In this document: in pieces, positions 24,546 to 56,302 of the stretch
How positions within the stretch are numbered: the first letter of the stretch is position 1
Layout: each line of letters opens with the position of its first letter
DNA from: an uncultured Actinomycetota bacterium
GTDB taxonomy: Bacteria; Actinomycetota; Acidimicrobiia; Spongiisociales; UBA4744
Assembly: GCA_963823915.1 (NCBI GenBank)
Contig: CAWGNJ010000006.1
Coordinates: forward strand, 82,225 to 146,224
Reading direction: 5' to 3'
Length of the DNA stretch: 64,000 nucleotides
Notes under the pieces: generated by a model
Seen by the model: only the letters and a program-made list of their open reading frames with translations
Told to the model about the DNA's origin: nothing
Databases searched by the model: none
Translations under genes and position numbers: made by a program

Positions 24546-24548
24546 CCC

Positions 24549-25973: not shown

Positions 25974-25998
25974 CGAGCTGCGAGCTACGAGCTGCGAG

Positions 25999-38089: not shown

Positions 38090-38090
38090 T

Positions 38091-38121: not shown

Positions 38122-38203
38122 CCCACATGTTTCGCAAGACCAAATGGCGACCACCAAGAGTAGTGATCACCTTGATGCGGGTAGGCTGCCAGGCTAACCG
38201 AGA

Positions 38204-38836: not shown

Positions 38837-39732
38837 AATCCCATCGAGCCTTTCCGCCGGGCGTGGGAAACCTCAAGATCCCTGTCTCTTCGCGGCGAGC
38901 TGCCCGGGCCGGTTTGGCTCTCTACGGCCCGTGCCGCCCGAAAGGGCGTTTCGCCCGCTGGGTAGCGTGGAGGTTGGTGGATCTGTTGGGAGCTGGGGCC
39001 CTTCCCGGCCGGCCCACCGAGTGGCATCCGCCCATGACCAACGAGACCTGGAAAGCGCTCACTTCCGTCTGGCAGGATCGGGTAGGCCCTTTTGAGGATG
39101 TGGCGATCTTCGATCGGGCACAGGCTTCGCGAACCGGTTTCGCAGCCCTGCTGCTGCGCAACGGCGGAGCCGTCGGATTCGCCAAGGTTCGGGAGGGAGA
39201 CGGCTCCGCCTTGGCCAATGAGGCTCGGGCTCTGGAAGCCGTTGGCGGATCTGGACCGACCTTGTTCGAGGTTCCGATGGCCATCGCGCTCGGCACGGTT
39301 GAGGGGTGGCACTTCTTCTTGGTGTCCCCCCTCCACCCGAGCCTCCATACCATGCCGGTCCGACCGCCCTTGGGCGAGATCGTGGTCGAGATACAGTCCG
39401 GATTGGGTGGTCTCCCGCGTCCTTCGGGGGTCGCGCCACATTGGAGGCCAATGCACGGCGACTTCACACCGTGGAATCTTCGCCAACGCGCCGACGGTTC
39501 GCTTTTCTTGATCGACTGGGAGGATGCCGCGTGGGCGCCCCCGGGCGCCGACGAGGTCTACTACCGGGCGGTGGAGAGCGCGGTGGCCGGCCGACGCTTT
39601 GACGGCCAAGGCTTCGACGAAGCAATCCGATTCTGGCTGGAAGTCCTTGAGAAGCGGCGCATTGATGCTCTAGCTGCGGGTGACCGCGACGCCGGCTTAC
39701 TGGACGATTTGCTACAAACTATTGGCGGGTAG
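38833..39732 (+). CDS. aminoglycoside-phosphotransferase/choline-kinase-fold (protein-kinase-like) small-molecule kinase
   Basis: HGDFTPWNL catalytic loop (HGDxxxxN) and LIDWEDA (DxE/D metal-binding). Confidence 0.6.
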   Translation: MKSHRAFPPGVGNLKIPVSSRRAARAGLALYGPCRPKGRFARWVAWRLVDLLGAGALPGRPTEWHPPMTNETWKALTSVWQDRVGPFEDVAIFDRAQASRTGFAALLLRNGGAVGFAKVREGDGSALANEARALEAVGGSGPTLFEVPMAIALGTVEGWHFFLVSPLHPSLHTMPVRPPLGEIVVEIQSGLGGLPRPSGVAPHWRPMHGDFTPWNLRQRADGSLFLIDWEDAAWAPPGADEVYYRAVESAVAGRRFDGQGFDEAIRFWLEVLEKRRIDALAAGDRDAGLLDDLLQTIGG

Positions 39733-41061
39733 CGGCGCCAATGCCTTTTCTGCCGGTGGGACAAACCTGCGCGCCACATCGCTGAGGCCGGCCAGACAGG
39801 CAAACAGAATCAGATCGGAATTGATCCATCCACCAAAACCGAGGCTCACGAATGTGTGGAGGAGCAGCGGGACGATGATGATCCCAACTGCCGTGTCGAC
39901 CCCGGCCAGCAGCTTTCGCCCGCTCCACCAAGCGACCCGGAGCGAAGCCCAAATCAGAAGGATGCTGCCGAGCAAGCCAACGCCAAGGAGCGCCTCCATA
40001 TACCCGCTGTGAAGACTCGAGGCAGTATCCGCGCCGATTGCTTTTAGGGCGGCCCAACGGCCCCCGGCCCCGAACCCGAATCCTGTCAAGAGGTGTTCGT
40101 CCGCTACTTCGAGCGCGGCCCCCCACCAGATCCAACGTCCGCTCCAGGAGGTCACATTCACGGCGGCTTGATCACGCGTGACGGCACCCCAAAGAGTGTC
40201 GGAGTTCACGACCACGGCGATCGCCGTGGCCGGCCCGATGAAGAAGAGGAGAAGCTTGCGGCGATGGATCAACAACACGACCGCCGCCGAGACCAACCAG
40301 ATGACCAGTCCCTGCCGTCCTGAGGCGAACAGTATCCCGAGGGTTCCGAAGATCGCGAATGTTATCCAGCCGAGTCTGGCTCTCCGCCCCGATGATTCGA
40401 AGTATTCCGACGCTCCGTATGCGAACATCAATGCGCCGATAGCAGAAAGACTGTTCGGGTGGGTGTAAGGGCTACCCATTGAGTTGGCCGTGATGAATCC
40501 TGGTCGGTTGTCTCCGGATAGAAATTCTCCGGGAACCAGGATGAATCCGATGACGGCCACGGCCACCAGGGCTCCCTCGAGCAAGATGACCATGCGGATC
40601 GTGTCGCGGAACTCCCGCTCCGGGTCCGAACCCACTCTGATCGCCCATATGGCGGCCAAACCGGCAGAAAGTTCGATCACTTTTCCGAAGGTGACGATCG
40701 GCGCCACCGAATACAGCGAAGTAGCGGCCGCGAAGACCCCATAGAACGTGAGGATTCCCAAGGTGGTGGATTTGGATGTCAACTTCCTGCCGGGCCGAAT
40801 GAGGGCGGGGATAACAATGAGGATGGCCAGCAGCGAAAGCCCACCCCTGATCACCCGCTCGATCACCACGGGGTCGGCAAGCACTTCCTCGGCTGTGGTC
40901 GGAGCCGCAAAGCTATGTGACCCCAGGAGGACGAGCAGCAAGGCGAATTGGGCGCGGGTCATGCGTATCCGGCCGGTCTTGCGAAATCCGCTCAATCCCT
41001 GCGGCGCGGCGAACGTCAGGGCCAGTATCCAGATGACTGCTGTCCAGCTGAGGCCTCTCAC
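39712..41061 (-). CDS. O-antigen ligase/polymerase family membrane protein (Wzy/WaaL-like)
   Basis: Ten or more TM helices with a large loop: GFGFGAGGRWAALKAIGADTASSLHSGYMEALLGVGLLG (Wzy_C-like). Confidence 0.7.
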   Translation of the reverse strand: MRGLSWTAVIWILALTFAAPQGLSGFRKTGRIRMTRAQFALLLVLLGSHSFAAPTTAEEVLADPVVIERVIRGGLSLLAILIVIPALIRPGRKLTSKSTTLGILTFYGVFAAATSLYSVAPIVTFGKVIELSAGLAAIWAIRVGSDPEREFRDTIRMVILLEGALVAVAVIGFILVPGEFLSGDNRPGFITANSMGSPYTHPNSLSAIGALMFAYGASEYFESSGRRARLGWITFAIFGTLGILFASGRQGLVIWLVSAAVVLLIHRRKLLLFFIGPATAIAVVVNSDTLWGAVTRDQAAVNVTSWSGRWIWWGAALEVADEHLLTGFGFGAGGRWAALKAIGADTASSLHSGYMEALLGVGLLGSILLIWASLRVAWWSGRKLLAGVDTAVGIIIVPLLLHTFVSLGFGGWINSDLILFACLAGLSDVARRFVPPAEKALAPLPANSL

Positions 41062-41192
41062 TCCTCTAACCTCCGACCGGAGAGCCTACCTGCAGTATTC
41101 GGGTAGGTCTTCCGGCAATGGGCTTGACGGTCCTGCGCAGCGATGAATTCCCCGGGGGGATGGTTCATGCTTAGGCTGACCGCTGACATCGA

Positions 41193-42392
41193 ATGGGGCG
41201 GTTGATGAAGGTTCTTCTTTCCGCGTATGCATGCGAGCCGGGAAAGGGCTCGGAGCCCGAAGTTGGTTTGCGCGCCTTGGAAGTGGTGGCCGGCGCCCAC
41301 GAGGTGTGGGTGTTGACTCGTACGAACAACCTGGATTCTCTTAAGCCCTTCCTTGCTTCACAATCGGCCGGCGACCGCGTTCGTGTGGTTGGGGTCGAGG
41401 CACCTGCTTGGGCCCTGCGTCTCAAGGCGAGGGGCGTACTCCCCGTCCAGTTGTATTACGACCTTTGGCAGCGGGCGGCCGCGGTGAAGGCTGTCGAGCT
41501 AGATCGCGAGATTTCATTCGATCTGGTTCACCACGTCACGTTCGCTTCCTATTGGGGGCGTGCCGGAGTTGCCGTGCTGGACAAACCAATGGTGTGGGGT
41601 CCGGTCGGGGGAGGGGTGTCACCACCGCGAACCCTGAGGAGTCTGCTCGGTTGGCGCGGTATGGGCTCCCACGCGGCGAGAGCGGCGATCAGGCCCGTAT
41701 TGGCCCGATTGCTCAACCCGCTCCGCAGTCGCGCCGGGGGGACCTTGGTGCTCGCCCAGAACCATCAGACAATCGAGCGCTTGGGCTCACCGGCAGGTGC
41801 CAGGGTGGTCTCCAACGCAACGTCCGTCACGGTCCCGTCCCCCGAATCGAGTCGATCTCGGAGCAAGGAAATTGCTTTCGTTGGTCGCCTCATCCCTTGG
41901 AAAGCAGGCGTGCTGGCCGTCCGTGTGATGCAGCATGTGCAAGACCCGGAGGCTGTTCTTGTCATCTACGGTCGCGGCCCGGAGGAATCGCGGATGAAAT
42001 CGCTGGCTGCCCAGCTCGGCGTTGACGCGAGAGTGCGGTTCGAGGGACCAGTTGCCAGACAGGACCTGCTGGATCGTTTGGCCGGGTCGGCGGCACTGCT
42101 TCACGTAGCCCTGCACGAGGAAGCCGGTCTCGCCGTCGCCGAAGCCCTGGCTTTCGGTACTCCGGTCGTTTGTCTAGATCATGGAGGCCCCGCGGAACTG
42201 GTCCAGAGGTGGGCCAGCAGCCCATCGATGGCCGTGGTGCCGGCCGACCGTCTGAGCACCGAGATTCGCCTAGCCGGGGCGCTGGATGGATTCCTCTCGG
42301 CCCCCCCGCCGATTCCCGCCGAGTCGCATCTGCCGGTTCCAACATTCGGAGAGGAACTGCTGGCGGCCTACGACAACGTCATTTCGGGTTGA
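41193..42392 (+). CDS. GT4-family glycosyltransferase (WcaL/AmsK-like N-terminus)
   Basis: MKVLLSAYACEPGKGSEPEVG N-terminal motif; C-terminal LHEEAGLAVAEALAFGTPVVCLDHGGPAE. Confidence 0.85.
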   Translation: MGRLMKVLLSAYACEPGKGSEPEVGLRALEVVAGAHEVWVLTRTNNLDSLKPFLASQSAGDRVRVVGVEAPAWALRLKARGVLPVQLYYDLWQRAAAVKAVELDREISFDLVHHVTFASYWGRAGVAVLDKPMVWGPVGGGVSPPRTLRSLLGWRGMGSHAARAAIRPVLARLLNPLRSRAGGTLVLAQNHQTIERLGSPAGARVVSNATSVTVPSPESSRSRSKEIAFVGRLIPWKAGVLAVRVMQHVQDPEAVLVIYGRGPEESRMKSLAAQLGVDARVRFEGPVARQDLLDRLAGSAALLHVALHEEAGLAVAEALAFGTPVVCLDHGGPAELVQRWASSPSMAVVPADRLSTEIRLAGALDGFLSAPPPIPAESHLPVPTFGEELLAAYDNVISG

Positions 42393-42416
42393 GAGCACCG
42401 GATTGTTGGCCGTGCA

Positions 42417-43355
42417 TCAGACGCCTCGGTAGCGTCCTGCCATCTGGGCGACAACCGTGCGACATGCCTCTTCAAGGCTGCCCGGGTTATCGAGGGTTAA
42501 ATCCGGCGTGGGCCGGCGCGGTCGTCCCGGCTCTCCCCAACTGACTGCCAAACCCGGCCTCAACCGTATCCGTTGGATGTCCCGGGCGAACCACGTCCAG
42601 GCTTCGGCCATACCCGACGGGTATCGACTGACCGAGTTGCGGACCAGGACCCTCCCGAAGCGTTGAGCCATCGAGTGAGCCATGTCCTGGTGGTTGCCCG
42701 GCAGATGGACCCAGTATCCAATCGGGGTGATCAGGCGGCCGGCGATCCGGGCCAGTTGTCCTCGACCCACTTGATATTTGGCTTTGGTGGTGATCTGGGA
42801 TGGCGCATCTCCGAGAATCGACGTGGCGAGCGTCTGAGAGGTCACAAGGCGCTCTACCACCTCACTGAGTCGACCCTTCGGGAGGGCGCTTAGTTCTCCC
42901 CGGACGGCTTCGAGAGCCTGTGGTTGCTGCTTTCGGGTCCGCTTGGAGAACAGATACACGCTGAGTTCAGGTTCGGAAACGGCCGGGAAGAGGGAGTCGC
43001 CGTCGGTTGTCGCCAGCAATTCGCTCGACCGAACGGAATAGTGCCCCAGTCCTTGGGGATCGTGCAGCATGTCAACCTGGGCGCCTTCCTCACCATCTTC
43101 GGTGAGGAAGAAGGCAGTGGCGGTTCCTCCAACATCGTATGGCCAGAGCGACACCAGGGAGATGCGCTGGGAATTGAGGGCCGATTGAGCACGCCGCAGC
43201 CCGGTGGCTGGAGGAGTATCAACGACGACGTCAATGTCGCCGGTCGGATCAGATGATCTGAGGGCCGCAGACGACTGAAGAAGAGCGAACTGGACGCCTG
43301 CGTCGTGCAGACTCTCGAGCACAGTGACAGCGATGCGGGGGTGGGTGGTTGGCAC
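42417..43355 (-). CDS. nucleotidyltransferase-fold protein (possibly PF14907-like) of unknown substrate
   Basis: PTGDIDVVVDTP is a G-x-D-x-D NTase motif near the N-terminus. 312 aa. Sits within the EPS locus. Confidence 0.45.
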   Translation of the reverse strand: MPTTHPRIAVTVLESLHDAGVQFALLQSSAALRSSDPTGDIDVVVDTPPATGLRRAQSALNSQRISLVSLWPYDVGGTATAFFLTEDGEEGAQVDMLHDPQGLGHYSVRSSELLATTDGDSLFPAVSEPELSVYLFSKRTRKQQPQALEAVRGELSALPKGRLSEVVERLVTSQTLATSILGDAPSQITTKAKYQVGRGQLARIAGRLITPIGYWVHLPGNHQDMAHSMAQRFGRVLVRNSVSRYPSGMAEAWTWFARDIQRIRLRPGLAVSWGEPGRPRRPTPDLTLDNPGSLEEACRTVVAQMAGRYRGV

Positions 43356-43370
43356 GGCTGTATCTCAATC

Positions 43371-44492
43371 TCAGCGGGAACTGATGTCGGTCCAGAATGT
43401 CACGTATTTCTTGGCGAGAGCCACAGGTCCGAACTGCGACTCGGCCCACATTCGACCCTGCCGGCCTTGTCGGGCTCGTTCTTCGGCGCTCTTGGCCAGC
43501 GTGGAAATGGCGTGCGCCAGAGCCGGGATGCTTCCCTCTTCAATCACTAGGCCTCCTCCTCCTACAACTTCGGGCAGCGACCCCGAATCGCTCGATATCA
43601 ATGGTGTGCCGGCGAACATCGCCTCCACCACTACACGTCCGAACTGTTCAGTCCAATCCGGTCGGGACAAGGAAGGCACGACGAGAAGATCAACCGCGGC
43701 CATGGCGGCCGGGATATCATTGGGGAACACGGGGCCCAAGAAACGGGTCGTGACGCCCAATTCTCGAGCCAGGTGTTGAAGGTGGGGTTGGCCGTCACCC
43801 GACCCAAAAAGGGCGACCACGGCTTGGGGTAAATTGGCCGCCGCCACGGACCGCAGCAACCAATCGACGCCTTTCTCGCTTTCGAGTCGGCCCACGTAGC
43901 CAACCACCAACTCCTTCCCGAAGCCGTACTCTTCTCGATGGTCTGCCCGAGAGCGTATGGCCTGATCGAAAGGCTCGAGATCCGGCAGCCGGGAAGGGGC
44001 GACCATCGTGGGCAAGTCCGGCCCCAGCCCGAATTCTCTCGCCAGTCTGATGCCGGCGTTGTTCCACGAAGCGAACCCGCTCAGATGAGAAAGGACCCGG
44101 CGAGCCCTCCACAGCCTCAAGCGGTTTTCGAGCCAGTTGCCGTGCCGCCACATATTGTCGGCGCCGTGTCCGGCGACCCGATAACGGGCTGGATCGATCT
44201 GTGAGTAGAAGAGCGCCCAGGGCTCAGCGGCGACGTGTACCACGTCAGGTTTGAGCCGGTCAACTGTGTCACCCAGCCCCGGGTAGGTCCACCAGAGAGA
44301 GCTCAGCCGTGACCACTCGCGAGGGGAGAAGACCTCGGTATCGATCCCTTCCGGAACCGCTGGTTTCCACCAGTCCTGATTTGGCTGCTTGAGGGTACCG
44401 GCGAGGTGAATATCGACGCCCAACTTCTGAGCTTGGTACCAATGAGCCATTTGGGAAGGCAGCAACGATGCTTCCACAACCAGTACCCGCAA
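43371..44492 (-). CDS. GT4-family glycosyltransferase
   Basis: GYVGRLESEKGVDWLL; EQFGRVVVEAMFAGTPLISSDSGSLPEVV (E-x7-E). Confidence 0.85.
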   Translation of the reverse strand: MRVLVVEASLLPSQMAHWYQAQKLGVDIHLAGTLKQPNQDWWKPAVPEGIDTEVFSPREWSRLSSLWWTYPGLGDTVDRLKPDVVHVAAEPWALFYSQIDPARYRVAGHGADNMWRHGNWLENRLRLWRARRVLSHLSGFASWNNAGIRLAREFGLGPDLPTMVAPSRLPDLEPFDQAIRSRADHREEYGFGKELVVGYVGRLESEKGVDWLLRSVAAANLPQAVVALFGSGDGQPHLQHLARELGVTTRFLGPVFPNDIPAAMAAVDLLVVPSLSRPDWTEQFGRVVVEAMFAGTPLISSDSGSLPEVVGGGGLVIEEGSIPALAHAISTLAKSAEERARQGRQGRMWAESQFGPVALAKKYVTFWTDISSR

Positions 44493-44607
44493 TCCCCGCC
44501 GTCCTTTCGTGACCTAGTCGCACCGGATGCTAGCTCTCGCCTCGCAATGTCCTGGGAAGAGTTAGACGAAGGCTCGGGTAGCATGTGAGCCGTGCTGGGC
44601 TTGGGGG

Positions 44608-46029
44608 TTGGACGTGAGAATGCCGTTCCGAACGCGTCAATCAGACGCGAAGTCGGAGAGTGAACCGGAGGATCCGCCGAAGAGGGTTCTGTTGGTGGGC
44701 TTTCTCCTGTCCCTGGCCGCGATTTTCTTCATGGTCGGGGTGGTCCTGGTGGCCGGAGCAGTCAGCCAACCCAGCTTGAGCACCGTCGTCTGGCAGGGCC
44801 CACCGTATTCGGCTGCTTGGCTCGACCAGGGGATCGGTGACGGAGCAACCACTACGGATCCGTCGAGCACTTCTACGACCTCGACTGCCTCAACTACCTC
44901 AACTACCTCTTCGCCGGTGACGACTACGACGACGAGGCCGCCGGTGTCGACTGTTGGTGGGGTGGCGGTGTTTCCTGGTGATTCGATTCAGGGGTTGGTG
45001 AATTCGCATCCGGGGGGGACGACGTTTGTGATTAAGGCGGGCGTGCATCGGCGTCAGCAGGTGGTCCCGAAGGATGGTGATTCGTTTATTGGTGAGCCGG
45101 GGGCGGTGTTGTCGGGTGAGGGGGTTACCGAGTTCGCGTTTGGTGAGGGTGGTTCTGGGGTGACGGTGCGGGGTTTGGTGATTGAGAAGTATGCGTCGGC
45201 GGCGCAGAAGGCGACGGTGCGGCCGGGTGGTGGTGCTGAGGGTTGGGTGGTTGAGGGTAATGAGATCCGGTACAACGGGGGGATTGGGTTGAAGGCCGGG
45301 TCGTTGTGGACGGTGGTGGGGAACCATATTCACCACAATGAGCAGTTGGGGTTGGCTGGGGCTGGTGGGCAGATTGTGGTGGATGGCAATGAGATTGCGT
45401 TCAATAACACTGCTCATTACGACCCGTATTGGGAGGGTGGTGGCACCAAGTTCATTCATACCAACAATTTGGTGGTGCGGAACAATGTTGTGCATGACAA
45501 CTATGGGCCGGGGTTGTGGTCGGATGGGAACAACCGTTACACCCTGTATGAGGGGAATCGGGTGTATGACAATTTCGGGCCGGGGATCTTTTATGAGATC
45601 AGTCATGATGGGGTGATCCGGAACAACGTTGTGGAACGGAACGGGTTTGGGTATGAGGGGTGGGTGGACGGCGCCGGGATTCTGGTGGCGACCTCACCGA
45701 ACGTTGAGGTGTATGGCAATACGGTTCGTTACAACAACGATGGGATTGCTGGGGTGCACACGGATCGGAGTACGTCCAATAGTGTCTATGGGCCGTATGC
45801 GTTGAAGAACCTGTGGGTGCACGACAACGTGATCGCCATGAATGTCGGTCAGAGTGGGGTAGTGACCAACTTCGATAGTGCGGTGTTCTCGGCGGCCTAC
45901 AACAACCGATTCGACAACAACACCTACACCCTCGGGTCGGCCTCCAAGTACTACCGCTGGCAAGGGGCCGAGATCACCACCAGCCAATGGAAAGCCACCG
46001 GCCAAGACGCCCACAGCACCTGGGAATAG
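44608..46029 (+). CDS. membrane-anchored right-handed parallel beta-helix (PbH1) repeat protein, paralogue 1 (TM anchor, S/T-rich and TTTTRPP linker, beta-helix)
   Basis: N-terminal TM LLVGFLLSLAAIFFMVGVVLVAGA, linker SPVTTTTTRPPVS, then ~360 aa of N-x-V/I-x-x-N beta-helix rungs (GNHIHHNEQLG, VVRNNVVHDNYGPG, VIRNNVVERNGFG, VYGNTVRYNNDG, WVHDNVIAMN). Confidence 0.8.
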   Translation: MDVRMPFRTRQSDAKSESEPEDPPKRVLLVGFLLSLAAIFFMVGVVLVAGAVSQPSLSTVVWQGPPYSAAWLDQGIGDGATTTDPSSTSTTSTASTTSTTSSPVTTTTTRPPVSTVGGVAVFPGDSIQGLVNSHPGGTTFVIKAGVHRRQQVVPKDGDSFIGEPGAVLSGEGVTEFAFGEGGSGVTVRGLVIEKYASAAQKATVRPGGGAEGWVVEGNEIRYNGGIGLKAGSLWTVVGNHIHHNEQLGLAGAGGQIVVDGNEIAFNNTAHYDPYWEGGGTKFIHTNNLVVRNNVVHDNYGPGLWSDGNNRYTLYEGNRVYDNFGPGIFYEISHDGVIRNNVVERNGFGYEGWVDGAGILVATSPNVEVYGNTVRYNNDGIAGVHTDRSTSNSVYGPYALKNLWVHDNVIAMNVGQSGVVTNFDSAVFSAAYNNRFDNNTYTLGSASKYYRWQGAEITTSQWKATGQDAHSTWE

Positions 46030-46259
46030 CCTCAGGGCAATCGGGGTCTGGTGCGTTGGGATTCGTGAATCGCAATCCGGGTTGGGGTAGCCCCGAAACT
46101 CCTCTACGATGCCGGCAAGCGTTCGCGCCTTGGGCGCACGGCGGTACGGGCCGCCTGGATGCTGAGATGAGAGCTGGCCCCTTCGTGGTTGTCGAATGGT
46201 CCACGCTTCGGCCGTCAGGTCTGGGAATACCTGAATGGCTTTGCTGAGGGAGGCATTTC

Positions 46260-48240
46260 GTGTCACGGCAATTGCATGGCACACATAGGGACGGTTTTGT
46301 TGCGGCTATTCGACGCGGGAAACACCGTGCGCACTTCTGGACAGCGGTGGAGCGGCGACTATTGGCCTTGACCGTGGTTCTGGCTTTGGCGATGACTGCC
46401 CCCGCTATCGTCGCAGCCTCCACCGACACTCCATCCCCGGTTGCGGGGGTTGCGGTCGATCGTGACACCTCGAGCCCCCGGGTCGCCAGGCCTCTGGCAG
46501 CGGATCCCGCTGATCCAACCGCGGACGTCGTTGCCGCTCCCGATACTCCCGCAGATCCTTCCGTTGATGACGCGGTCGGCGATGGGCGGCTCCACCTCCA
46601 CCGAGGCGGTTGCGGAGTCATCGACCACCACGATTGGCCCGGTTCGGGGTGCTTTGGTGGCGGGGGTTCCGACGACGGTTCCGACGACGGTTCCGTCTGG
46701 GTATCGGTTGACGTGGTCGCCGAATATGGGCGACTTTTTGTCGGGGCAGCCGTTTACGAATGGGGTTCATGTTCCGTATGACGAGTTCTTTGTGTTTTTG
46801 GCGCCGCAGAAGGCTTCCTCGGTTACGTGGACTTCGGATAACGGGTCGTGGGTGTATCGCGATGATGGGTATCCGTGGCGGGTTTGGCCCGGCGGCGCCC
46901 AGATATGGAAGATGGAGCCGGGTCAGCATGTGTTGACGGCCACGGTTGACGGGTCGGTGACGATCAGCGTCCGCTACACAATGGGAGCGTCCCTGCAGGG
47001 CGTGCTGGCTGCCAATCGCCTTCCGACCTACCCGGGTTCGTCGGCGATCGCAACGCAGTCTGCATCGGCCGGCACGTCAACGGCTTCTCAGAGTTCGCCG
47101 CCGGTGACGACTACGACGACGAGGCCGCCGGTGACGACTACGACGACGAGGCCGCCGGTGTCGACTGTTGGTGGGGTGGCGGTGTTTCCTGGTGATTCGA
47201 TTCAGGGGTTGGTGAATTCGCATCCGGGGGGGACGACGTTTGTGATTAAGGCGGGCGTGCATCGGCGTCAGCAGGTGGTCCCGAAGGATGGTGATTCGTT
47301 TATTGGTGAGCCGGGGGCGGTGTTGTCGGGTGAGGGGGTTACCGAGTTCGCGTTTGGTGAGGGTGGTTCTGGGGTGACGGTGCGGGGTTTGGTGATTGAG
47401 AAGTATGCGTCGGCGGCGCAGAAGGCGACGGTGCGGCCGGGTGGTGGTGCTGAGGGTTGGGTGGTTGAGGGTAATGAGATCCGGTACAACGGGGGGATTG
47501 GGTTGAAGGCCGGGTCGTTGTGGACGGTGGTGGGGAACCATATTCACCACAATGAGCAGTTGGGGTTGGCTGGGGCTGGTGGGCAGATTGTGGTGGATGG
47601 CAATGAGATTGCGTTCAATAACACTGCTCATTACGACCCGTATTGGGAGGGTGGTGGCACCAAGTTCATTCATACCAACAATTTGGTGGTGCGGAACAAT
47701 GTTGTGCATGACAACTATGGGCCGGGGTTGTGGTCGGATGGGAACAACCGTTACACCCTGTATGAGGGGAATCGGGTGTATGACAATTTCGGGCCGGGGA
47801 TCTTTTATGAGATCAGTCATGATGGGGTGATCCGGAACAACGTTGTGGAACGGAACGGGTTTGGGTATGAGGGGTGGGTGGACGGCGCCGGGATTCTGGT
47901 GGCGACCTCACCGAACGTTGAGGTGTATGGCAATACGGTTCGTTACAACAACGATGGGATTGCTGGGGTGCACACGGATCGGAGTACGTCCAATAGTGTC
48001 TATGGGCCGTATGCGTTGAAGAACCTGTGGGTGCACGACAACGTGATCGCCATGAATGTCGGTCAGAGTGGGGTAGTGACCAACTTCGATAATGCGGTGT
48101 TCTCGGCGGCCTACAACAACCGATTCGACAACAACACCTACACCCTCGGGTCGGCCTCCAAGTACTACCGCTGGCAAGCCGGTGAGATCACCACCAGCCA
48201 ATGGAAAGCCACCGGAAACGACGCCCACAGCACCTGGTAG
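46260..48240 (+). CDS. secreted parallel beta-helix repeat protein, paralogue 2 (signal peptide, D/P-rich region, beta-sandwich domain, TTTTRPP linkers, beta-helix), with a frameshift near 46593
   Basis: Signal peptide RRLLALTVVLALAMTAPAIVAAS is in frame 46260. GGSTSTEAVAESS...GYRLTWSPNMGDFLSGQPFTN...beta-helix is in frame 46441. The C-terminal ~1.1 kb is nucleotide-identical to paralogues 1 and 3 (the antisense track ORFs are identical). Confidence 0.75.
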
Positions 48241-48469
48241 CCGGATTCGTTTCCTTTTCCTCGTTTCTCCTTGTCCTTCTCTCTCACACGGCTCGAGATC
48301 GCCGGCTGAGATCCCCATTGGACTGAACCTCGTTCTTCGCTCTTTTGGGGCGATGATCCACTCAACCCAGGTATTGCCAGGCGTATAGGTCTAAAGGCCT
48401 ATGCCGGAGTGCCGATACCTCTCGAACGGTCTGGGACGCATCTGAGCTAGCCAATATCGGGAGGATGAA

Positions 48470-50401
48470 GTGGAAACCCTCAGGAGAACCGGGATGGCGC
48501 TTGTCGTCATTGCCGCGCTGGCAATCCCAGCCGTCTCAGTAATCGGTGGTTTCGAGGAAGCTGCCCCCCAAGAGTTTTCAGCAGAACAGCCAATCGCGTC
48601 GGGGCAAGTGGGCCAGGCGGCCTCACGAGCCGGTCAGCCTGCTGATGACCTGCCCGTCGCACTTGATGAGCTTCCTAATGTGGAAGACCCGGCTTGGGTT
48701 CCATCGGTGACAGTCGATGGGACTACCTCTTCGACTACCTCTTCCTCCACCTCCACCGAGGCGGTTGCGGAGTCATCGACCACCACGATTGGCCCGGTTC
48801 GGGGTGCTTTGGTGGCGGGGGTTCCGACGACGGTTCCGTCTGGGTATCGGTTGACGTGGTCGCCGAATATGGGCGACTTTTTGTCGGGGCAGCCGTTTAC
48901 GAATGAGGTTCATATTCCCTATGACGAGTTCTTTGTGTTTTTGGCGCCGCAGAAGGCTTCCTCGGTTACGTGGACTTCGGATAACGGGTCGTGGGTGTAT
49001 CGCGATGATGGGTATCCGTGGCGGGCTTGGCCCGGCGGCGCCCAGATATGGAAGATGGAGCCGGGTCAGCATGTGTTGACGGCCACGGTTGACGGGTCGG
49101 TGAAGGTCACAGTCCGCTACACAATGGGGGCGGGAACCAAGCCGCCGGTCGCGACAGCTGCGACACGATCGTCTTACAGCTCTCCGGCGACGACTACGAC
49201 GACGAGTCAGCGGTCGAATCCGCCGGCAACGACTACGACGAAGCCGCGGTCGAATCCGCCGGTGACGACTACGACGACGAGGCCGCCGGTGACGACTACG
49301 ACGACGAGGCCGCCGGTGTCGACTGTTGGTGGGGTGGCGGTGTTTCCTGGTGATTCGATTCAGGGGTTGGTGAATTCGCATCCGGGGGGGACGACGTTTG
49401 TGATTAAGGCGGGCGTGCATCGGCGTCAGCAGGTGGTCCCGAAGGATGGTGATTCGTTTATTGGTGAGCCGGGGGCGGTGTTGTCGGGTGAGGGGGTTAC
49501 CGAGTTCGCGTTTGGTGAGGGTGGTTCTGGGGTGACGGTGCGGGGTTTGGTGATTGAGAAGTATGCGTCGGCGGCGCAGAAGGCGACGGTGCGGCCGGGT
49601 GGTGGTGCTGAGGGTTGGGTGGTTGAGGGTAATGAGATCCGGTACAACGGGGGGATTGGGTTGAAGGCCGGGTCGTTGTGGACGGTGGTGGGGAACCATA
49701 TTCACCACAATGAGCAGTTGGGGTTGGCTGGGGCTGGTGGGCAGATTGTGGTGGATGGCAATGAGATTGCGTTCAATAACACTGCTCATTACGACCCGTA
49801 TTGGGAGGGTGGTGGCACCAAGTTCATTCATACCAACAATTTGGTGGTGCGGAACAATGTTGTGCATGACAACTATGGGCCGGGGTTGTGGTCGGATGGG
49901 AACAACCGTTACACCCTGTATGAGGGGAATCGGGTGTATGACAATTTCGGGCCGGGGATCTTTTATGAGATCAGTCATGATGGGGTGATCCGGAACAACG
50001 TTGTGGAACGGAACGGGTTTGGGTATGAGGGGTGGGTGGACGGCGCCGGGATTCTGGTGGCGACCTCACCGAACGTTGAGGTGTATGGCAATACGGTTCG
50101 TTACAACAACGATGGGATTGCTGGGGTGCACACGGATCGGAGTACGTCCAATAGTGTCTATGGGCCGTATGCGTTGAAGAACCTGTGGGTGCACGACAAC
50201 GTGATCGCCATGAATGTCGGTCAGAGTGGGGTAGTGACCAACTTCGATAATGCGGTGTTCTCGGCGGCCTACAACAACCGATTCGACAACAACACCTACA
50301 CCCTCGGGTCGGCCTCCAAGTACTACCGCTGGCAAGCCGGTGAGATCACCACCAGCCAATGGAAAGCCACCGGAAACGACGCCCACAGCACCTGGAAATA
50401 A
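48470..50401 (+). CDS. secreted parallel beta-helix repeat protein, paralogue 3 (intact: signal peptide, beta-sandwich domain, T/P linker, beta-helix)
   Basis: 643-aa intact ORF with a signal peptide, a ~130-aa domain shared with paralogue 2, three TTTT(R/K)P repeats, and a beta-helix identical to paralogues 1 and 2. Confidence 0.85.
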   Translation: METLRRTGMALVVIAALAIPAVSVIGGFEEAAPQEFSAEQPIASGQVGQAASRAGQPADDLPVALDELPNVEDPAWVPSVTVDGTTSSTTSSSTSTEAVAESSTTTIGPVRGALVAGVPTTVPSGYRLTWSPNMGDFLSGQPFTNEVHIPYDEFFVFLAPQKASSVTWTSDNGSWVYRDDGYPWRAWPGGAQIWKMEPGQHVLTATVDGSVKVTVRYTMGAGTKPPVATAATRSSYSSPATTTTTSQRSNPPATTTTKPRSNPPVTTTTTRPPVTTTTTRPPVSTVGGVAVFPGDSIQGLVNSHPGGTTFVIKAGVHRRQQVVPKDGDSFIGEPGAVLSGEGVTEFAFGEGGSGVTVRGLVIEKYASAAQKATVRPGGGAEGWVVEGNEIRYNGGIGLKAGSLWTVVGNHIHHNEQLGLAGAGGQIVVDGNEIAFNNTAHYDPYWEGGGTKFIHTNNLVVRNNVVHDNYGPGLWSDGNNRYTLYEGNRVYDNFGPGIFYEISHDGVIRNNVVERNGFGYEGWVDGAGILVATSPNVEVYGNTVRYNNDGIAGVHTDRSTSNSVYGPYALKNLWVHDNVIAMNVGQSGVVTNFDNAVFSAAYNNRFDNNTYTLGSASKYYRWQAGEITTSQWKATGNDAHSTWK

Positions 50402-50450: not shown

Positions 50451-52421
50451 TCAGTTTGGGACGAGTACCGCGACTGTGATCGATTCCGTCCGGGTTGACC
50501 ACCCGTCTCCGTAGGTCTGTCCCATCCAATCGACTGTCGTCCTGCCGGCGGGTCCGGCATATAGGACGGCACACGGAGCCTCGGCCGCGGCAGGATCGTA
50601 TGCCGCACTGGATTCGTTTGCCACGGCAATCGACGACAGGCGAACATCGGGGTCGCGGTCCTGCAGCAGGACCCAGAAGGGGTATTCCCACGGGGACTCG
50701 GTGGGTGATTCGTCGAACAGGAGGCCGACATTCGAACAGCCAAGCTCGGCTGTTCGATCAACCGCTTCCAGATACCCGCTCATCACATCCGGGCGACTCA
50801 TGAAGTAGAGATCGGTCCGGTTGAGTGTGAAGACGTTCTCGATGACTCCTTCGTCGATAGCACGACTGTTGGCCACGATCGGTCTGGTTTCGTTGAACAG
50901 GAGAAAGGGCAAAGCGCCTACCAGCAGGAGGGCGGCAATCAGCCCGGACACTCTTGCCGATCTCCAGCGACCCATCCGGGTGCCCAACCAGGGTGCCATC
51001 AGCAGGAAATAGGGAAGGTGCAGGCGTGCTCCCCAGATTTGCCACCGGAAGGCGAGCGAGAAGAGAAGCAGCGCCGCGCTTGCCGCCGCGAGGTACGCCC
51101 ACTGCACCGACTTCCCCGGCTCGGAGCGTCGAAAGTCCAATAGGAAAGCGCCCACCGCCGCCCCGATGAGAATCACCGCCACCGCGTTTCCGGCGAATTC
51201 CTCATGGTTGATGAGGGTGGGGAGGTCGAAGTCGGTTAGAGAAGTCCGCCGATCGTTGATTTCGACCCCGAGGGCTCCGTTGACTGCCGTGGCTGCCTCA
51301 ATCAGCTTGGTGTTGATGGATCGGATCGGGGTACTGAATTGGAGAGCTGTGTTCTTGACCAGATTGGCCAGGTAAAGGGGAGCGCTGAATGCCTGATTGC
51401 TGAACACATTGCTTCCGGCGGTTATCCCCAGGGGCGTCGAGAACATCGACAGGTTGCGAAGGTAGTGCCCGGCGTTGACTACCAGGGCAATTGATCCCAT
51501 GGCCGCCCAAGGTTTCCATGCCTTCCACTTGAGCCGTTTCAGGTCCGACGCCACAAACCAAACGAGAAAAGGGAAGGCGTATACGTAAGCCGTTCCCTTG
51601 GTGAGAATCGCCAGACCGACGCTTGCCCCCAGAAAGACGAGGTCAGCCCGATTCGTGGATTCGACTATCCGGCGGTGTAAGCCGAAATAGACAAGGCAGA
51701 GCAGCCAGAACCCCACCGTCAGGTCGTTCTGCGTGCTGGAAGCCTGAAGAATGCCCATTGGCAAGGTTGCCGCGACGACCGCGGAAAGGAGCTGACCGCG
51801 CCGGTTCGCTCCCAGCAGACCGGCCAGGGCGGAGACTGCGAAGACACTGCCAACCAAGGCGGACCATTGCACGAGATTGACGAGCCGGTCGCCGCCACCA
51901 AGGGAAATCAGGTGGCTGATGGTGAATTCCGCCCAAGGATTCTGGAACAGGTTCTGCAGGTAGTGGGTCGGGTAGTGCTCGACGCTGCCTTGTTGCAACC
52001 AGTTGACGACCCGAGCCAGGTGATAGGCCATTGAGTCCCAGTTGTTGGGCGGGGCGAAGATCGCTATGAACCCGGTGGTGCCCGCGATTACCAGCAGCCC
52101 GAAGTAGGACAACCGTTCGCCCCTGGAGAGGCCCTTCCTGGGAAGAAACGAAAAGCGGGGTAGCTTCTTCAGGTGCCGACGCTGTGCGGCAACTGCCAGC
52201 AGAACTACGGTGATCAGAAACCAGCACATGGCGATCCACAGCGTTTTAAGGGCGTGGGCCGTGCTGAGGAACTCAGTTATGGCGACTACCGACAATCCCC
52301 AAAGCACGGCCGCCCGCAGCAAAGCATCCCGAGCCCCGGTTTCGGGGCGGTATAACACCTGGACCAGCAAGATGCCCGGAATAAGAGCGATGAGGGCAAA
52401 CACGGGGGCATCGTCGCCCAC
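50451..52421 (-). CDS. GT-C fold membrane glycosyltransferase (ArnT/PMT-like, GT39/GT83 family)
   Basis: 656 aa with 12 or more TM helices, a large periplasmic C-terminal domain, and an N-terminal loop FAPPNNWDSMAYHLARVVNW of the DxD-like type seen in PMT/ArnT-family enzymes. Confidence 0.6.
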   Translation of the reverse strand: MGDDAPVFALIALIPGILLVQVLYRPETGARDALLRAAVLWGLSVVAITEFLSTAHALKTLWIAMCWFLITVVLLAVAAQRRHLKKLPRFSFLPRKGLSRGERLSYFGLLVIAGTTGFIAIFAPPNNWDSMAYHLARVVNWLQQGSVEHYPTHYLQNLFQNPWAEFTISHLISLGGGDRLVNLVQWSALVGSVFAVSALAGLLGANRRGQLLSAVVAATLPMGILQASSTQNDLTVGFWLLCLVYFGLHRRIVESTNRADLVFLGASVGLAILTKGTAYVYAFPFLVWFVASDLKRLKWKAWKPWAAMGSIALVVNAGHYLRNLSMFSTPLGITAGSNVFSNQAFSAPLYLANLVKNTALQFSTPIRSINTKLIEAATAVNGALGVEINDRRTSLTDFDLPTLINHEEFAGNAVAVILIGAAVGAFLLDFRRSEPGKSVQWAYLAAASAALLLFSLAFRWQIWGARLHLPYFLLMAPWLGTRMGRWRSARVSGLIAALLLVGALPFLLFNETRPIVANSRAIDEGVIENVFTLNRTDLYFMSRPDVMSGYLEAVDRTAELGCSNVGLLFDESPTESPWEYPFWVLLQDRDPDVRLSSIAVANESSAAYDPAAAEAPCAVLYAGPAGRTTVDWMGQTYGDGWSTRTESITVAVLVPN

Positions 52422-53805: not shown

Positions 53806-54781
53806 ATGACCCGCGACCCCACGTGCCAGCGTCGGCCTACCCGTCTACAACGGTGAGGCATTCATCGCCGACGCACTTGATTCGGTGCTCGCTCAGACAT
53901 TTGACGAGTGGGAAGTGATCATCTGTGACAACGCCTCGACTGATGGGACGGCAGAGATCTGCATGGCGTATGTCGAGAAGGATGAGCGGATTCGTTACTA
54001 CCGAAACGAAACGAATCTGGGCGCATCGAAGAACTACGAGCGTACCTATGAGTTGTCGAGTGGCGAGTACTTCTGTTGGTTGCCATCTGACGATGCAATG
54101 GAACCCGATTTCCTAGCTCGTTGCGTCGACATGCTGGACAACGACCCTGAGGTTGTCAACGCGTTTTCGCAATACCTCATCAGGAGCGGCACGGATGCCC
54201 CGGTGTCCCATGAGATCAGTCTTGACTCGGACATGCGGTTTGTGTCGACGTACCAAAGGGTGAGGAAACTGTTTCGCGAGCGCATCATCGGTCCCAACTG
54301 GCCCATGTTCGGGGTATACCGCTCGAGCATTCTGAAGGACACAGGTCGCCTCCGGCCGATGATCGGAGCGGACGATTATTTGACACTCGAAGTGGCGTTG
54401 ATGGGACAAGTCGGGCAGGTACCGGAACAGCTGTACGTGATCCGAACCCATCCCGATGCATGGCACGTAGCCCGGGAGTCCAAGGGCAAGGGGCTGCTGG
54501 CAAGGTTGCTGGGGACGGAGACTGTCTGGGCAGCCGCCTGGTTCGATCCGGCCAATGAGAAAATGCGGGTGGTTTTCCCGCATTGGCGGCGTCTGCAAGT
54601 GTTTGCCAGCCTGATTATGCGTTCCAAGACGGGTTTTGGCGAAAAGCTGAAGATGCTCGGATTGTTGCCCGTGTACGCCGTTCAGCACTGGCGCCGACTC
54701 GCCAAAGAACTTGTCGGTGGTGTAGCCCAGTTGATCGTCGTTCCGCTTCGAGCCCTGAAGAAGTCGCCGACCCCGTCCTAG
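53806..54781 (+). CDS. GT2-family glycosyltransferase, with an N-terminal frameshift near 53822
   Basis: ATG at 53806 gives MTRDPT, then the reading shifts to SVGLPVYNGEAFIADALDSVLAQTFDEWEVIICDNASTDGT...WLPSDD (DxD). Confidence 0.8.
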
Positions 54782-56302
54782 CTTGGTAGATCGGCGTCAA
54801 CGACGGCTTTCGGCCGTTCAGTCCGACGTCGACGTGCGCAATCCCGAACTTGGGGAAGAGGCCGCCAGGGGCGTACCCGAGGTATCTGTGGGCGCCGAGA
54901 ATGGCGACGAAATACACGCCCGCGCCGAGAACAGGTGCCCATCCCAGCATCCACCCGCTGTCGAGGTCAGGAACCCAGTTCTTGACCAAGGTGAGAACAC
55001 CCAGCATGAGCATTGCACTTGCGGCGGGGACCGCCAACGGGCGCAGGAGCGTCGCTGGTCGGGCTTGCAGAATTCTCGTCGCCACATAGAGGCCGACGAC
55101 AAAAGGAATCGCGGCGACGACGGTCGCCCAGGCCGCTCCGCGGATGCCCCACATGGTTGTAAACGGATAGATGAAGATGGCAAGCAGGACCACTGTTGCG
55201 GTCCACAGAATCGTATTGATGTAGGGCTTGCCGACGCCGTTGAACAACGGGTCCGTGGTGCCGGCTACCGCCCTGACCAGACCCCAAATCAGCAATACCT
55301 CGTAGGCGCCGAGGAGTGGCAGCCACTCGTCGGGTAGAAAGACTCCGACCGCGGTCGGGCCCAGAAACCACAGGCCGGCGGTGATCGGCATGGCCACAAG
55401 CGCGACCAATTGGAGAGCCTGTAGATAGGCGCCCCGGAGTTTGGGCAGGTCTCCCTGCAACTTGGACAGAGCCGGGAAAGCCACATCGTTGACGACGCCG
55501 GCGATCTGCTCGGTGATCAAGGCAGAGATCGTGAAGGCCATCTGGTAGAGCGCGAGGTCCTCGGTACTCAGTACCCGACCTACGACGATGTCGTCGAGAT
55601 TGAGCATCAGGAAGACCAGGATCATGGAGCCAAGAATCCAACTTCCGAACCGCACGAGATCCATCGTCTTCTCGCGATCGAAGCGGAGCCTCGGTCGGTA
55701 CCTGTGAGCGACGTATGAGCCGATCGTCATGGTCAACTGGTTGGCTACCCGCCCGAGTACCAGGGCCCACACGCTTTGCAGCAGGATGGCGGCGGTCACC
55801 GCCACAACCAGATCGACGACGTGCGGCAACGATCGATACACAAAACGTTGTCGGAACTGGAGTTCTTTGTCGAAGAACACGACTCCGATGTTGTTGAGAC
55901 CGTTGAGAAAGACCACCAGAGCTAGAGCGCGGATCACGTTCGCCGCCGCGTCCGTTGTGAAAGAAGGTCGCGATCAGCGGTGCGCCTGCCAGCAGGATGA
56001 CTGCCAGGATGACACCGCGGATCACCGTAATGGTCCAAGCGACATCGAGGTGATCCTTGATGTCGCCCTCGCGCTGAACCAAGGCCTGGCTAAAACCCGT
56101 CGTAGTGAAGGTCTCGAGGAGGGCGAGCGTTAGAAGAGCGATTCCCATGAGTCTCGACCTCGCCCGTCCCCAGGAAATTGGCCACGACGACGAGTCGCAC
56201 GATTCGCAACGATTTGGTGAGGCCGCTCAGGGCAAACGCCCAGAACCCGGCGTTGGCCGTGCGGCTCCTGAGCGAGTCACCTGGATGGAGGACCCACTGC
56301 AC
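54615..56302 (-). CDS. Wzx-type polysaccharide flippase (MOP/MATE superfamily), with 2 frameshifts; true 3' end probably near 54.88 kb
   Basis: Three frames carry consecutive Wzx segments: ANAGFWAFALSGLTKSLRIVRLVVVANFLG, then MGIALLTLALLETFTTTGFSQALVQR, then ALALVVFLNGLNNIGVVFFDKELQFRQRFVY, followed by more TM helices. The C-terminal ~80 residues look out-of-frame. Confidence 0.7.

Follow-up and report, generated by a model that had tools for sequence, protein, structure and literature searches.

Tandem beta-helix genes with near-identical C-terminal modules in a Wzx/Wzy-type polysaccharide locus of an uncultured Actinomycetota bacterium

Introduction

Tandem or dispersed bacterial paralogues can undergo concerted evolution by gene conversion, as in the rRNA operons and the tuf genes. 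The algE genes of Azotobacter vinelandii, which encode the secreted mannuronan C-5 epimerases/lyases AlgE1-7, are partly clustered and have highly similar A-modules. The catalytic motif of AlgE (A-module, PDB 2PYG) is YG(F/I)DPH(D/E), with Y149, D152 and H154, and its AlgG version is DPHD (PMC8824271). Other glycan-active enzymes are encoded in the very cluster that makes their substrate. WceF of Pantoea stewartii is a stewartan hydrolase with a beta-helix, encoded in an EPS cluster (PMC7949094), RbmB of Vibrio cholerae, a VPS lyase (PDB 9OZD), is an EPS-locus-encoded beta-helix glycanase (PMC11637428, PMC12993940), and the gene for alginate lyase is invariably part of the alginate cluster (PMC4444821).

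Here we describe three tandem beta-helix genes in a 64,000-nucleotide stretch of DNA (hereafter the window) from an uncultured bacterium of the Acidimicrobiia (Actinomycetota). As for WceF, RbmB, AlgL, PslG and other glycanases that act on a self-made glycan, they are encoded within a polysaccharide locus. The kind of system is known, and the version found here is undescribed: a literature search returned no earlier description of such arrays.

Results

Three genes end with the same beta-helix module

The genes g1, g2 and g3 lie on the plus strand, and the 361-aa right-handed beta-helix (BH) module that ends all three ORFs, as the original prediction had stated, is the same (Table 1). Alignment of the copies bore out their near-identity: g2 and g3 match at every one of 1140 nt (47098-48237 and 49256-50395), and g1 shows no difference from either over 966 nt (44912-45877), by both ungapped comparison and global alignment. 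The final 146 nt of g1 differ from g2 and g3 at 8 nt, which produce exactly the substitutions that had been read from the translations, namely FDS/FDN, QGAE/QAGE and GQD/GND. The contrast between these two segments of g1 against g2 (0/966 then 8/146 nt) is sharp (Fisher p 7e-8). Copy-to-copy homology ends at the stop codons, past which g2 and g3 are dissimilar by global alignment, and a BLAST of 46024-46589 against the window returned the self-match alone. The TTTTRPP linkers noted ahead of the beta-helix are also there in all three genes, as a 27-nt V-TTTTT-RPP unit, of which g1 has one copy and g2 and g3 have about 2.6 copies each. The junctions into the BH module are of three different kinds, and so are those out of it, which requires a minimum of three copies.

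The identical ORFs on the antisense strand arise as a side effect of the GC-rich DNA being repeated. A promoter/terminator scan gave nothing beyond the shuffled expectation; both plus-strand hairpins of the terminator scan fall within repeated N-module coding sequence.

Table 1. Features of the array and its flanks (positions in the window)
Feature	Positions	Strand	Details
GT4 glycosyltransferase flanking the array	43371-44492	-	divergently transcribed; same layout in L001 and L040
g1, membrane-anchored paralogue (predicted)	44620-46029	+	469 aa from ATG 44620, a start also called in L001; ORF list start is TTG 44608
g1 transmembrane/signal-anchor helix (predicted)	44686-44763	+	residues 23-48, behind a 22-aa charged N-terminal tail; hydropathy
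g1 Ser/Thr-rich linker	44848-44943	+	last element is one V-TTTTT-RPP unit; translation, tandem repeats
BH module, copy 1	44944-46026	+	361 aa
g1-g2 spacer	46030-46259	+	unrelated to the g2-g3 spacer (48241-48469)
g2 5' part, frame 0	46260-46589	+	basic tail, hydrophobic signal-anchor, D/P-rich segment; GTG start, GGGAGG Shine-Dalgarno
One-base frameshift between g2 5' part and body	46579-46590	+	shift within GGGCGGC at about 46582-46590; coincides with the onset of g3 homology
g2 body, frame 1, including stop	46591-48240	+	N-module ~46603-46986, linker 46987-47157, BH copy 2 47158-48237
g3, secreted paralogue (predicted)	48470-50401	+	643 aa; signal peptide, acidic spacer, N-module ~48758-49132, Thr/Pro linker 49133-49315, BH copy 3 49316-50398
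Shared N-module DNA	48745-49132	+	~100-aa core; paralogous to 46590-46989
PMT_2 (GT-C type) membrane glycosyltransferase	50451-52421	-	convergent, directly downstream of the array; recurs near BH arrays in L005 and L037

The N-termini differ, and g2 is frameshifted as assembled

The N-terminal membrane anchor proposed for g1 corresponds to a predicted hydrophobic helix, whose best 19-aa Kyte-Doolittle window scores 2.79, and it is 83% identical to that of the orthologue in a related species (P0002). The start of g3 is preceded by a GGGAGGA Shine-Dalgarno. Hydropathy points to signal- or anchor-like stretches in g3 and in the frame-0 ORF of g2. The signal peptides that had been described for g2 and g3 would correspond to these stretches, but that of g2 and its D/P-rich region are in another frame than the g2 body: they belong to ORF 46260-46781 (frame 0) whereas the body is in frame 1. 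The two halves join only through a one-base shift, so that g2 is not one ORF as assembled and just two copies are certainly intact. Both frames are open over 46441-46781, and the g2 5' part resembles the N-termini of P0014, P0007 and the type-B gene of L042. Given the other frameshift-split genes and error-prone patches of the window, the frameshift may stem from an error in the consensus. Programmed frameshifting, for which neither a slippery motif nor any other support was found, was rejected as less likely than such an error or a real pseudogene.

The N-module shared by g2 and g3 starts with 75 identical positions (46590-46664 and 48745-48819, 0 differences), followed by a 12-nt indel and by a segment in which 9/313 nt differ; the linkers of the two genes cannot be aligned. 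The beta-sandwich-like domain announced for these paralogues was recovered as a shared module with a generic Ig/Fn3-like fold in a low-confidence model, but glycan binding was unsupported. When the N-module by itself was the query, a word-indexed homologue search gave 0 matches, though P0001 contains it, and an exhaustive phmmer search gave 7 matches only, with a weak link to PEGA/CarboxypepD_reg-type beta-sandwiches. The g2 frame-0 N-terminus had 0 matches in a metagenome scan, a result that carries no information because a later g3 scan of that collection did not recover L001 either.

Arrays recur in other genomes and BH copies are alike within most genomes

Tandem BH copies were found in 12 of the 36 fetched loci, and the comparison of copy number in relatives gave arrays of 2-4 BH genes on long contigs, with three tandem BH genes and a fragment in L038 (93 kb) and two BH genes in L005 (2.6 Mb). 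BH identity within genomes is 98-100% for the window, 86-98% for the four L038 copies, 96% in L005 and 87% in L023, and is 100% between P0022 and P0030, which we infer to belong to one genome. Between genomes it is 38-71%, and 88-89% with the related species P0002. The types of N-terminal module recur across those genomes at 37-51% identity. Tandem copies are only 64% (aa) identical in L008 and only 78% (nt) in L007, which indicates that homogenisation is not universal.

A strain contig, L001, is 99.97% identical to the window, with 3 SNPs over about 9.7 kb of flank. The two differ by one paralogue-to-paralogue tract of 0.64-0.81 kb, in which g3-type sequence (48179-48819) replaces 45965-46676. 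The array holds mosaic tracts with sharp boundaries and, provided that L001 is correctly assembled, a tract polymorphism between strains.

The original prediction had offered very recent duplication or ongoing gene conversion, and the mosaic identity, the within- versus between-genome pattern and the L001 tract favour the latter. Had the copies arisen by a very recent tandem duplication without gene conversion, with N-terminal differences acquired later via domain shuffling, their tandem arrangement on the same strand and the perfect identity over 1140 nt would be as expected of fresh duplicates. However, divergence within the g2/g3 pair is uneven (2.9% in the N-module, none in BH, and a linker beyond alignment), and the g1 N-terminus is unrelated, with an orthologue (83%) in the related species, the BH of which is no more than 88-89% identical. 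Moreover, N-module, helical and SLH paralogue types are also found in genomes that share 53-62% BH identity with the window, and the within-genome similarity pattern is repeated in several lineages. We consider recent duplication improbable because the differently addressed paralogue types predate the genome lineages compared. Judged from these sequence comparisons, the better fit of gene conversion is well supported.

Could repeat mis-assembly, strain variants placed in tandem or pooled-read polishing have produced the array, the number of its copies or their exact identity? The hazard announced for such repeats is real: L001 takes a different path through them, and many metagenome contigs stop inside BH copies. 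In addition, the window has many one-base indels against same-species contigs, at least 5 frameshift-split genes and poor-consensus patches, and exact-protein look-ups (g1; g3 with two starts) found the exact g1 and g3 proteins absent from the record. On the other side stand the three distinct entry and exit junctions, the arrays on the 93-kb and 2.6-Mb contigs, and L001 itself, which independently carries g1, a complete second gene and the beginning of a third, and against which the window has no indels over 36279-46023. An artefact thus seems to us a poor account of the array. It is the perfect copy identity and the g2 frameshift, rather than the array itself, that may be artefactual; polishing may account for part of the exact 100%, and the difference from L001 could reflect assembly path rather than biology.

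The BH module has a carbohydrate-active type of fold

Pfam Beta_helix (PF13229) matches all three genes at E 3e-18 to 3e-21 (3.6e-18 for g1), with 65-76 bits against a cut-off of 25.9. PF00353 is absent from the window genes and present only in some distant homologues. Structure prediction agreed with a carbohydrate-active fold: the AF2 model (pLDDT 95.3, pTM 0.93) is a beta-helix, which in structure comes closest to the AlgE4 epimerase, tailspike depolymerases, GH87, PL6 and RbmB. When the family profile was run against PDB sequences, AlgE4 was matched at E 8.8e-9, with an HDN motif common to both; GH28 (limited to the N-terminal cap, E 4e-5) and GH120 (E 0.004) gave weak partial matches. No PL6 or GH87 member came up in this search, nor did the BH sequence match characterised GH/PL families. 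A phmmer match to CapD in the PDB (E 0.0045) was judged a spurious low-complexity similarity. No BH match was obtained in PHROG, which leaves a phage tailspike origin without support at the sequence level. The family is abundant: of 8000 candidates that the protein search scored, 434 were matches.

Its invariant polar residues are E150, K169, H184, D194 and E218, and D194 is aligned with the catalytic D178 of AlgE4 (profile alignment; residue role from PMC8824271). At the position of the AlgE catalytic loop, ungapped extension of this alignment and the family consensus give GGGTKFI, with invariant G166 and K169. An AlgE/AlgG-type C5-epimerase acting at polymer level on a uronic-acid polymer would thus have its YG(F/I)DPH(D/E) loop (Y149, D152, H154; PMC8824271) replaced. 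The window also holds no alginate genes and no GDP-mannose dehydrogenase, having a GDP-mannose 4,6-dehydratase instead, and hydropathy predicts export via Sec-type signals or an anchor, not RTX/T1SS. We regard this activity as very unlikely. Still further down in probability, and rejected, is a NosD-like periplasmic maturation or chaperone protein: NosD models (TIGR04247 / PF05048) do match, but at 35-38 bits against a cut-off of 300, and there is no nosZ, nosF, nosY or nosL in the window or related loci. The 'NosD-like' label given by annotation pipelines is misleading for BH proteins.

The array lies in a polysaccharide locus

The placement of the genes inside an EPS locus was confirmed: the array sits in a Wzx/Wzy-type polysaccharide locus encoding a BY-kinase/Wzz protein, GT4s, WecG, Gmd, a GDP-fucose-synthase-like protein, Wzy, a flippase, an initiating transferase and PMT_2. 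L001, L005, L037 and L038 have a matching polysaccharide neighbourhood. Among the window ORFs scanned there was no uronic-acid pathway gene, which weakens the lyase and epimerase options. Fold and locus context are in line with the proposal that the BH proteins tailor or degrade the locus product as lyase, hydrolase or epimerase, but these three chemistries are indistinguishable.

The BH proteins might instead be non-enzymatic surface proteins, with a structural, adhesive or lectin-like beta-helix (S-layer-like or PfbA-like) and Thr-rich linkers perhaps O-glycosylated by the locus, with the Wzy_C protein as O-oligosaccharyltransferase or PMT_2 as protein mannosyltransferase. The Thr/Pro-rich linkers do exist, PMT_2 adjoins this array and recurs near others, relatives have SLH-anchored paralogues, and WceF itself shows lectin-like behaviour (PMC7949094). 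However, the five invariant polar residues are kept in proteins 45-73% identical to the query, beyond the Asn/Gly scaffold, the best fold and profile matches are enzymes, with D194 at the place of the catalytic Asp of AlgE4, and binding and catalysis can coexist. A purely structural or binding role is therefore an unlikely alternative, if the least unlikely of those weighed here.

Discussion

The reading that we favour, with a probability of about 60%, is that of a real tandem array providing one glycan-processing activity in membrane-anchored and secreted forms, whose BH copies are homogenised by gene conversion. The repeat structure, the fold, the locus context and the contrast in BH identity within and between genomes are shown directly, whereas export topology, enzymatic activity, substrate and the selective reason for homogenisation are proposed from them. 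Each gene combines a common catalytic-type BH module, a Thr/Pro-rich linker and a different N-terminal 'address', a predicted membrane anchor in g1 and a predicted export signal with an Ig-like beta-sandwich in g2 and g3. Repeated non-allelic gene conversion would keep the BH modules almost identical and leave the address modules and spacers free to diverge. BH would bind and process the locus-made glycan, by cleavage, trimming or another polymer-level modification, probably in a putative active-site groove around the invariant Lys and acidic residues. One activity would then work both at the membrane, near the export/polymerisation machinery, and in the wall or matrix, and homogenisation would hold every copy matched to the cell's own glycan.

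The array resembles known concerted evolution in that paralogues of one genome are closer to each other than orthologues of different genomes, and in its sharp tract boundaries. Unlike in rRNA operons and tuf genes, homogenisation is here limited to one protein module, and adjacent modules diverge or are swapped. With AlgE1-7, the BH family shares by alignment the equivalence of D194 and D178, but the Tyr, Asp and His of AlgE are absent, GGGTK with its invariant Lys standing there instead; the window genes are also without RTX R-modules or T1SS and the locus is not alginate-type. WceF, a beta-helix glycanase encoded within a Wzx/Wzy EPS cluster and acting on the product of that cluster, offers the best functional analogy. 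It differs in that it occurs in a single copy, as a trimeric, tailspike-like protein, in a Gram-negative bacterium, with no paralogue array, no address modules and no detected sequence similarity to BH. RbmB gives no sequence-level match either, and as a lyase it requires an acidic sugar, of which the BH locus gives no sign. PL6 alginate/chondroitin lyases, GH87 alpha-1,3-glucanases and phage tailspike depolymerases are 9-18% identical to BH, with no profile or PHROG match.

More tentatively, and as a proposal that we hold to be less likely than not, BH may define a not yet characterised family of carbohydrate-active enzymes that is sister to the AlgE A-modules and has an active site centred on Lys. 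Its cassette would be conserved across Acidimicrobiia; it was also seen in MAGs that carry the label Acidobacteriota, and both family members and tandem copies turned up in Gemmatimonadota MAGs. Module-restricted gene conversion would actively keep one catalytic module identical over 2-4 genes in tandem whose sole difference would be the address, be it a membrane anchor, an SLH wall anchor or an Ig-like or helical domain, a genetic device to deploy and co-evolve a single self-glycan-processing activity at several envelope layers.

BH arrays break or scramble short-read assemblies. Members of the BH family are found repeatedly in Wzy-type loci of soil and sediment phyla that have received little study, and this abundant uncharacterised beta-helix family is a candidate new family of glycan-active enzymes. 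If our reading is right, the array would be a natural case of module-level concerted evolution, in which the catalytic domain stays uniform and the targeting domains diversify, a pattern that would suggest selection matching differently located enzymes to one fast-evolving, self-made glycan.

Anatomy of the array

A listing of ORFs and a search for repeats reveal three plus-strand genes (g1, g2 and g3) at 44.6-50.4 kb, each ending in one common module, in agreement with the original prediction. In an ungapped comparison from anchor points 44912, 47126 and 49284, g2 equals g3 over 1140 nt (47098-48237 and 49256-50395). g1 agrees with both at every position of 44912-45877 (966 nt), after which its last 146 nt contain 8 differences that yield exactly the three predicted changes, FDS/FDN, QGAE/QAGE and GQD/GND. 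In the alignment, similarity among the copies stops at the stop codons. The shared module (BH), 361 aa long and corresponding to residues 283-643 of g3, begins directly after a 27-nt V-TTTTT-RPP unit, of which g1 has one copy and g2 and g3 about 2.6 each. BH matches Pfam Beta_helix in every gene of the array (E 3e-18 to 3e-21). Upstream, g2 and g3 have a beta-sandwich-like N-terminal module (N-module) in common, aligned as 75 identical nt, a 12-nt indel and then 9 differences in 313 nt; between it and BH lie some 108 nt of linker that cannot be aligned. Repetition of GC-rich DNA accounts for the long identical antisense ORFs.

GC skew reaches 0.17-0.22 across the array (44000-50000) versus about 0.03 elsewhere in the window, probably owing to G-rich codon usage in these Gly/Val/Thr-rich genes. 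Identical terminator-like hairpins with a T-run lie inside the N-module coding sequence of both copies; such hairpins do not exceed shuffled expectation in the window, and these two are probably there by chance.

Coordinates of the array, its neighbours and the genes split between frames (window positions)
Feature	Position	Strand	Remark
APH-like kinase	38833-39732	+	
ORF	38797-39609	-	no Pfam match
ORF	42417-43355	-	no Pfam match
g1	44620-46029	+	
g2	46260/46591-48240	+	
g3	48470-50401	+	
Hairpin + T-run	46715-46735		inside N-module
Hairpin + T-run	48858-48878		inside N-module
PMT_2 (GT-C)	50451-52421	-	
Flippase	54615-55937 + 54967-56148	-	one-base insertion, extra G near 55945
DRL-like oxidoreductase	58375-59115 + 57817-58272	-	split between frames
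Epimerase/RmlC fusion	60145-60705 + 59112-60506	-	split between frames
Initiating sugar transferase	63207-63821 + 62902-63297	-	split between frames

The array is real, and g2 is broken as assembled

BH has three distinct entry and three distinct exit junctions, and therefore at least three copies are required. The independent 12.4-kb contig of a near-identical strain (L001), which differs from the window by only 3 SNPs over about 9.7 kb of common flank, contains g1, a complete and intact second gene (629 aa) and the beginning of a third. Comparison of copy number in relatives showed arrays on long contigs as well: L038 (93 kb) carries three BH genes in tandem, including an SLH-anchored one, and an inverted BH fragment (10001-15433 and 6040-6834), and L005 (2.6 Mb) carries two. 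Same-strand tandem copies occur in 12 of the 36 loci fetched. The recombination and assembly hazard expected from such repeats is visible in public data, where many short contigs end within a BH copy. Taken together, the three-gene array is real.

L038 belongs to a relative whose sigma factor (P0137) is 97% identical, and the SLH gene of this relative has a frameshifted C-terminus. Another SLH-domain BH paralogue lies at 11145-12851 of L005, the 2.6-Mb contig of a MAG labelled Acidobacteriota; such an anchoring domain is unexpected for this phylum and could reflect mis-binning, a horizontal transfer or a genuine system of wall anchoring.

For g2, the predicted signal and D/P-rich segment is present, one base out of frame with the body of the gene. 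In the ORF list, g2 begins at TTG 46441 with an N-terminus unlike a signal peptide, and the signal-anchor and D/P-rich segment belong to another ORF (46260-46781) that begins with GTG, 6 nt downstream of a GGGAGG Shine-Dalgarno sequence. The frame-0 peptide ends in ...PSVDDAVGDG and the frame-1 peptide resumes at GSTSTEAV..., and since g3 reads ...PSVTVDG...STSTEAV, the shift can be placed within GGGCGGC at about 46582-46590. It coincides exactly with the start of nucleotide homology to g3. The frame-0 N-terminus, a basic tail followed by a hydrophobic helix, resembles those of the homologues P0014, P0007 and P0034 and of the N-module gene of L042, indicating that it is genuine coding sequence. 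g2 is thus broken as assembled, and the frameshift may be a consensus error.

The window consensus is of patchy quality, as judged by comparison with L046 and L001 and by genes split between frames. L046 belongs to the same species as the window and comes from the same JGI sample as L001. The alignment of 21976-29550 with it has 109 mismatches and opens 25 gaps. Most of these are single bases inserted in the window, outside homopolymers, and they break genes intact in L046 (a PALP enzyme and a DsbH-like thioredoxin protein); in the adjacent stretch 18012-21885, identity is 99.8%. Against L001, 36279-46023 shows 10 mismatches and no indels. Between 55900 and 63821, at least four minus-strand polysaccharide genes are split between frames. 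Polishing with pooled reads could account in part for the perfect identity of the three copies.

Gene conversion more likely than recent duplication

The original prediction left a choice between very recent duplication and ongoing gene conversion. Mosaicism, the grouping of modules and a tract in L001 together favour concerted evolution over recent duplication, judging from sequence comparison. First, divergence is unevenly distributed: g1 and g2 differ at 0 of 966 nt and then at 8 of 146 nt (Fisher p 7e-8), and g2 and g3 at 9 of 313 nt, then in the unalignable linker, then at 0 of 1140 nt.

Second, in an identity matrix each BH module is closest to others of its own genome, and N-terminal modules sort by type. 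Within genomes, BH identity is 98-100% (window), 86-98% (L038), 100% (P0022/P0030), 96% (L005) and 87% (L023), versus 38-71% between genomes and 88-89% for P0002, the g1 orthologue of a related species. The N-terminal parts find their matches in other genomes: the g1 anchor in P0002 (83%), the g2/g3 N-module in P0004, P0012, P0034 and P0047 (37-50%), the helical N-domain of L038_c in P0022 (51%) and the SLH type of L038_b in P0046 (40%). The P0022/P0030 lineage even has the layout of the window, with a GT4 gene, a membrane-anchored BH gene and an N-module gene in that order. Because the N-terminal types recur across genomes, the differently addressed paralogues are older than the lineages compared, and their BH modules are nevertheless near-identical inside each genome. 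Such homogenisation is not universal, as copies in L008 are 64% identical (aa) and those in L007 78% (nt).

Third, a three-way alignment shows L001 to be the same as the window except for one tract (9687-10326 of L001; 0.64-0.81 kb), where, in place of 45965-46676, it has g2-end/g3-start-type sequence (48179-48819) between flanks 99.97% identical to the window. The tract begins within the 3' end of BH, crosses the spacer and signal-peptide region and reaches into the N-module, leaving the second gene in frame with a g3-type signal peptide. One non-allelic conversion would explain both this signal peptide and the QAGE and GND of L001 g1. In a related species (L045), too, the g1 orthologue is followed by a spacer and signal peptide of the g3 type. 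The tract is supportive of conversion and non-decisive, an assembler's path through the repeats being also possible. The original interpretation was largely right, the corrections concerning the g2 frame and recent duplication.

Fold and candidate active site

The predicted beta-helix was borne out by AlphaFold2 on a 46-sequence alignment, which gave a right-handed beta-helix (pLDDT 95.3, pTM 0.93) with Foldseek in agreement. The BH family profile matches AlgE4 (E 8.8e-9), with an HDN motif in common and the invariant D194 on AlgE D178, one of the catalytic residues Y149, D152, H154 and D178 (PMC8824271). When the profile alignment is extended ungapped, the AlgE loop YGFDPHEQT lies opposite GGGTKFIHT, so that the AlgE acid/base pair is absent from BH and the invariant K169 occupies the facing loop. 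E150, H184 and E218 are further invariant polar residues in the family alignment. In RbmB, the Lys base K227 is helped by E253, a Glu 26 residues downstream (PMC12993940); the K169/D194 spacing is 25, a likeness by analogy and not a demonstrated equivalence. Possible reactions are acid/base hydrolysis and, on an acidic sugar, Lys-based beta-elimination or epimerisation. Membership of NosD was rejected (35-38 bits against a cut-off of 300, and no nos genes in the window or the related loci), and BH had no match in PHROG.

The N-module gave only 7 matches among 1.84 billion representatives, pointing to a rare, lineage-restricted domain. Its relationship to PEGA/CarboxypepD_reg-type sandwiches is weak, and its low-confidence model has seven strands and matches only generic Ig/Fn3 folds.

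Locus context and proposed role

A divergent GT4 gene and the convergent PMT_2 gene flank the array. The locus further encodes Wzz/BY-kinase, GT4s, WecG/TagA, GDP-mannose 4,6-dehydratase, a GDP-fucose-synthase-like epimerase, Wzy_C, an APH-like kinase, GT2, a flippase, a PIG-L deacetylase, a dTDP-sugar epimerase and an initiating transferase, and the BH genes of L001, L037, L038 and L005 have the same neighbourhood. No uronic-acid pathway genes were found among the window ORFs scanned. The window's primary sigma factor has Acidimicrobiia as named relatives, and the closest species-representative BH matches are Acidimicrobiia MAGs.

The PMT_2 and APH-like kinase genes both recur beside BH arrays in several lineages (L005, L037, L038); possible roles of PMT_2 are glycosylation of the Thr-rich linkers and polymerisation of a glycan. 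In L001, a 301-aa gene with no Pfam match lies between two GT4 genes, at the position of ORF 42417-43355. Sulfotransferase genes are found in the L038 and L037 loci.

One BH module stands on three addresses, homogenised in the genome, within a conserved polysaccharide locus. All three proteins would be exported: g1 would be fixed by a type II-like anchor, and the other two would be secreted or signal-anchored. The linkers rich in Thr and Pro would form extended spacers, possibly O-glycosylated, and the BH groove would bind and process the locus glycan. Glycanases of EPS clusters such as WceF (PMC7949094) and RbmB (PMC11637428) are precedents, and a cluster-encoded alginate lyase clears misplaced polymer (PMC4444821). 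By analogy with these enzymes, the anchored copy may act beside the polymerisation/export machinery and the secreted copies may remodel or release matrix. The array falls within known kinds, namely self-glycan beta-helix enzymes and concerted evolution of paralogues. Its main interest is homogenisation that is module-restricted and family-wide, with a conserved multi-address architecture, a combination that did not turn up in the literature searched. Through gene conversion, any change keeping the enzyme in step with the glycan of its own cell would pass from copy to copy.
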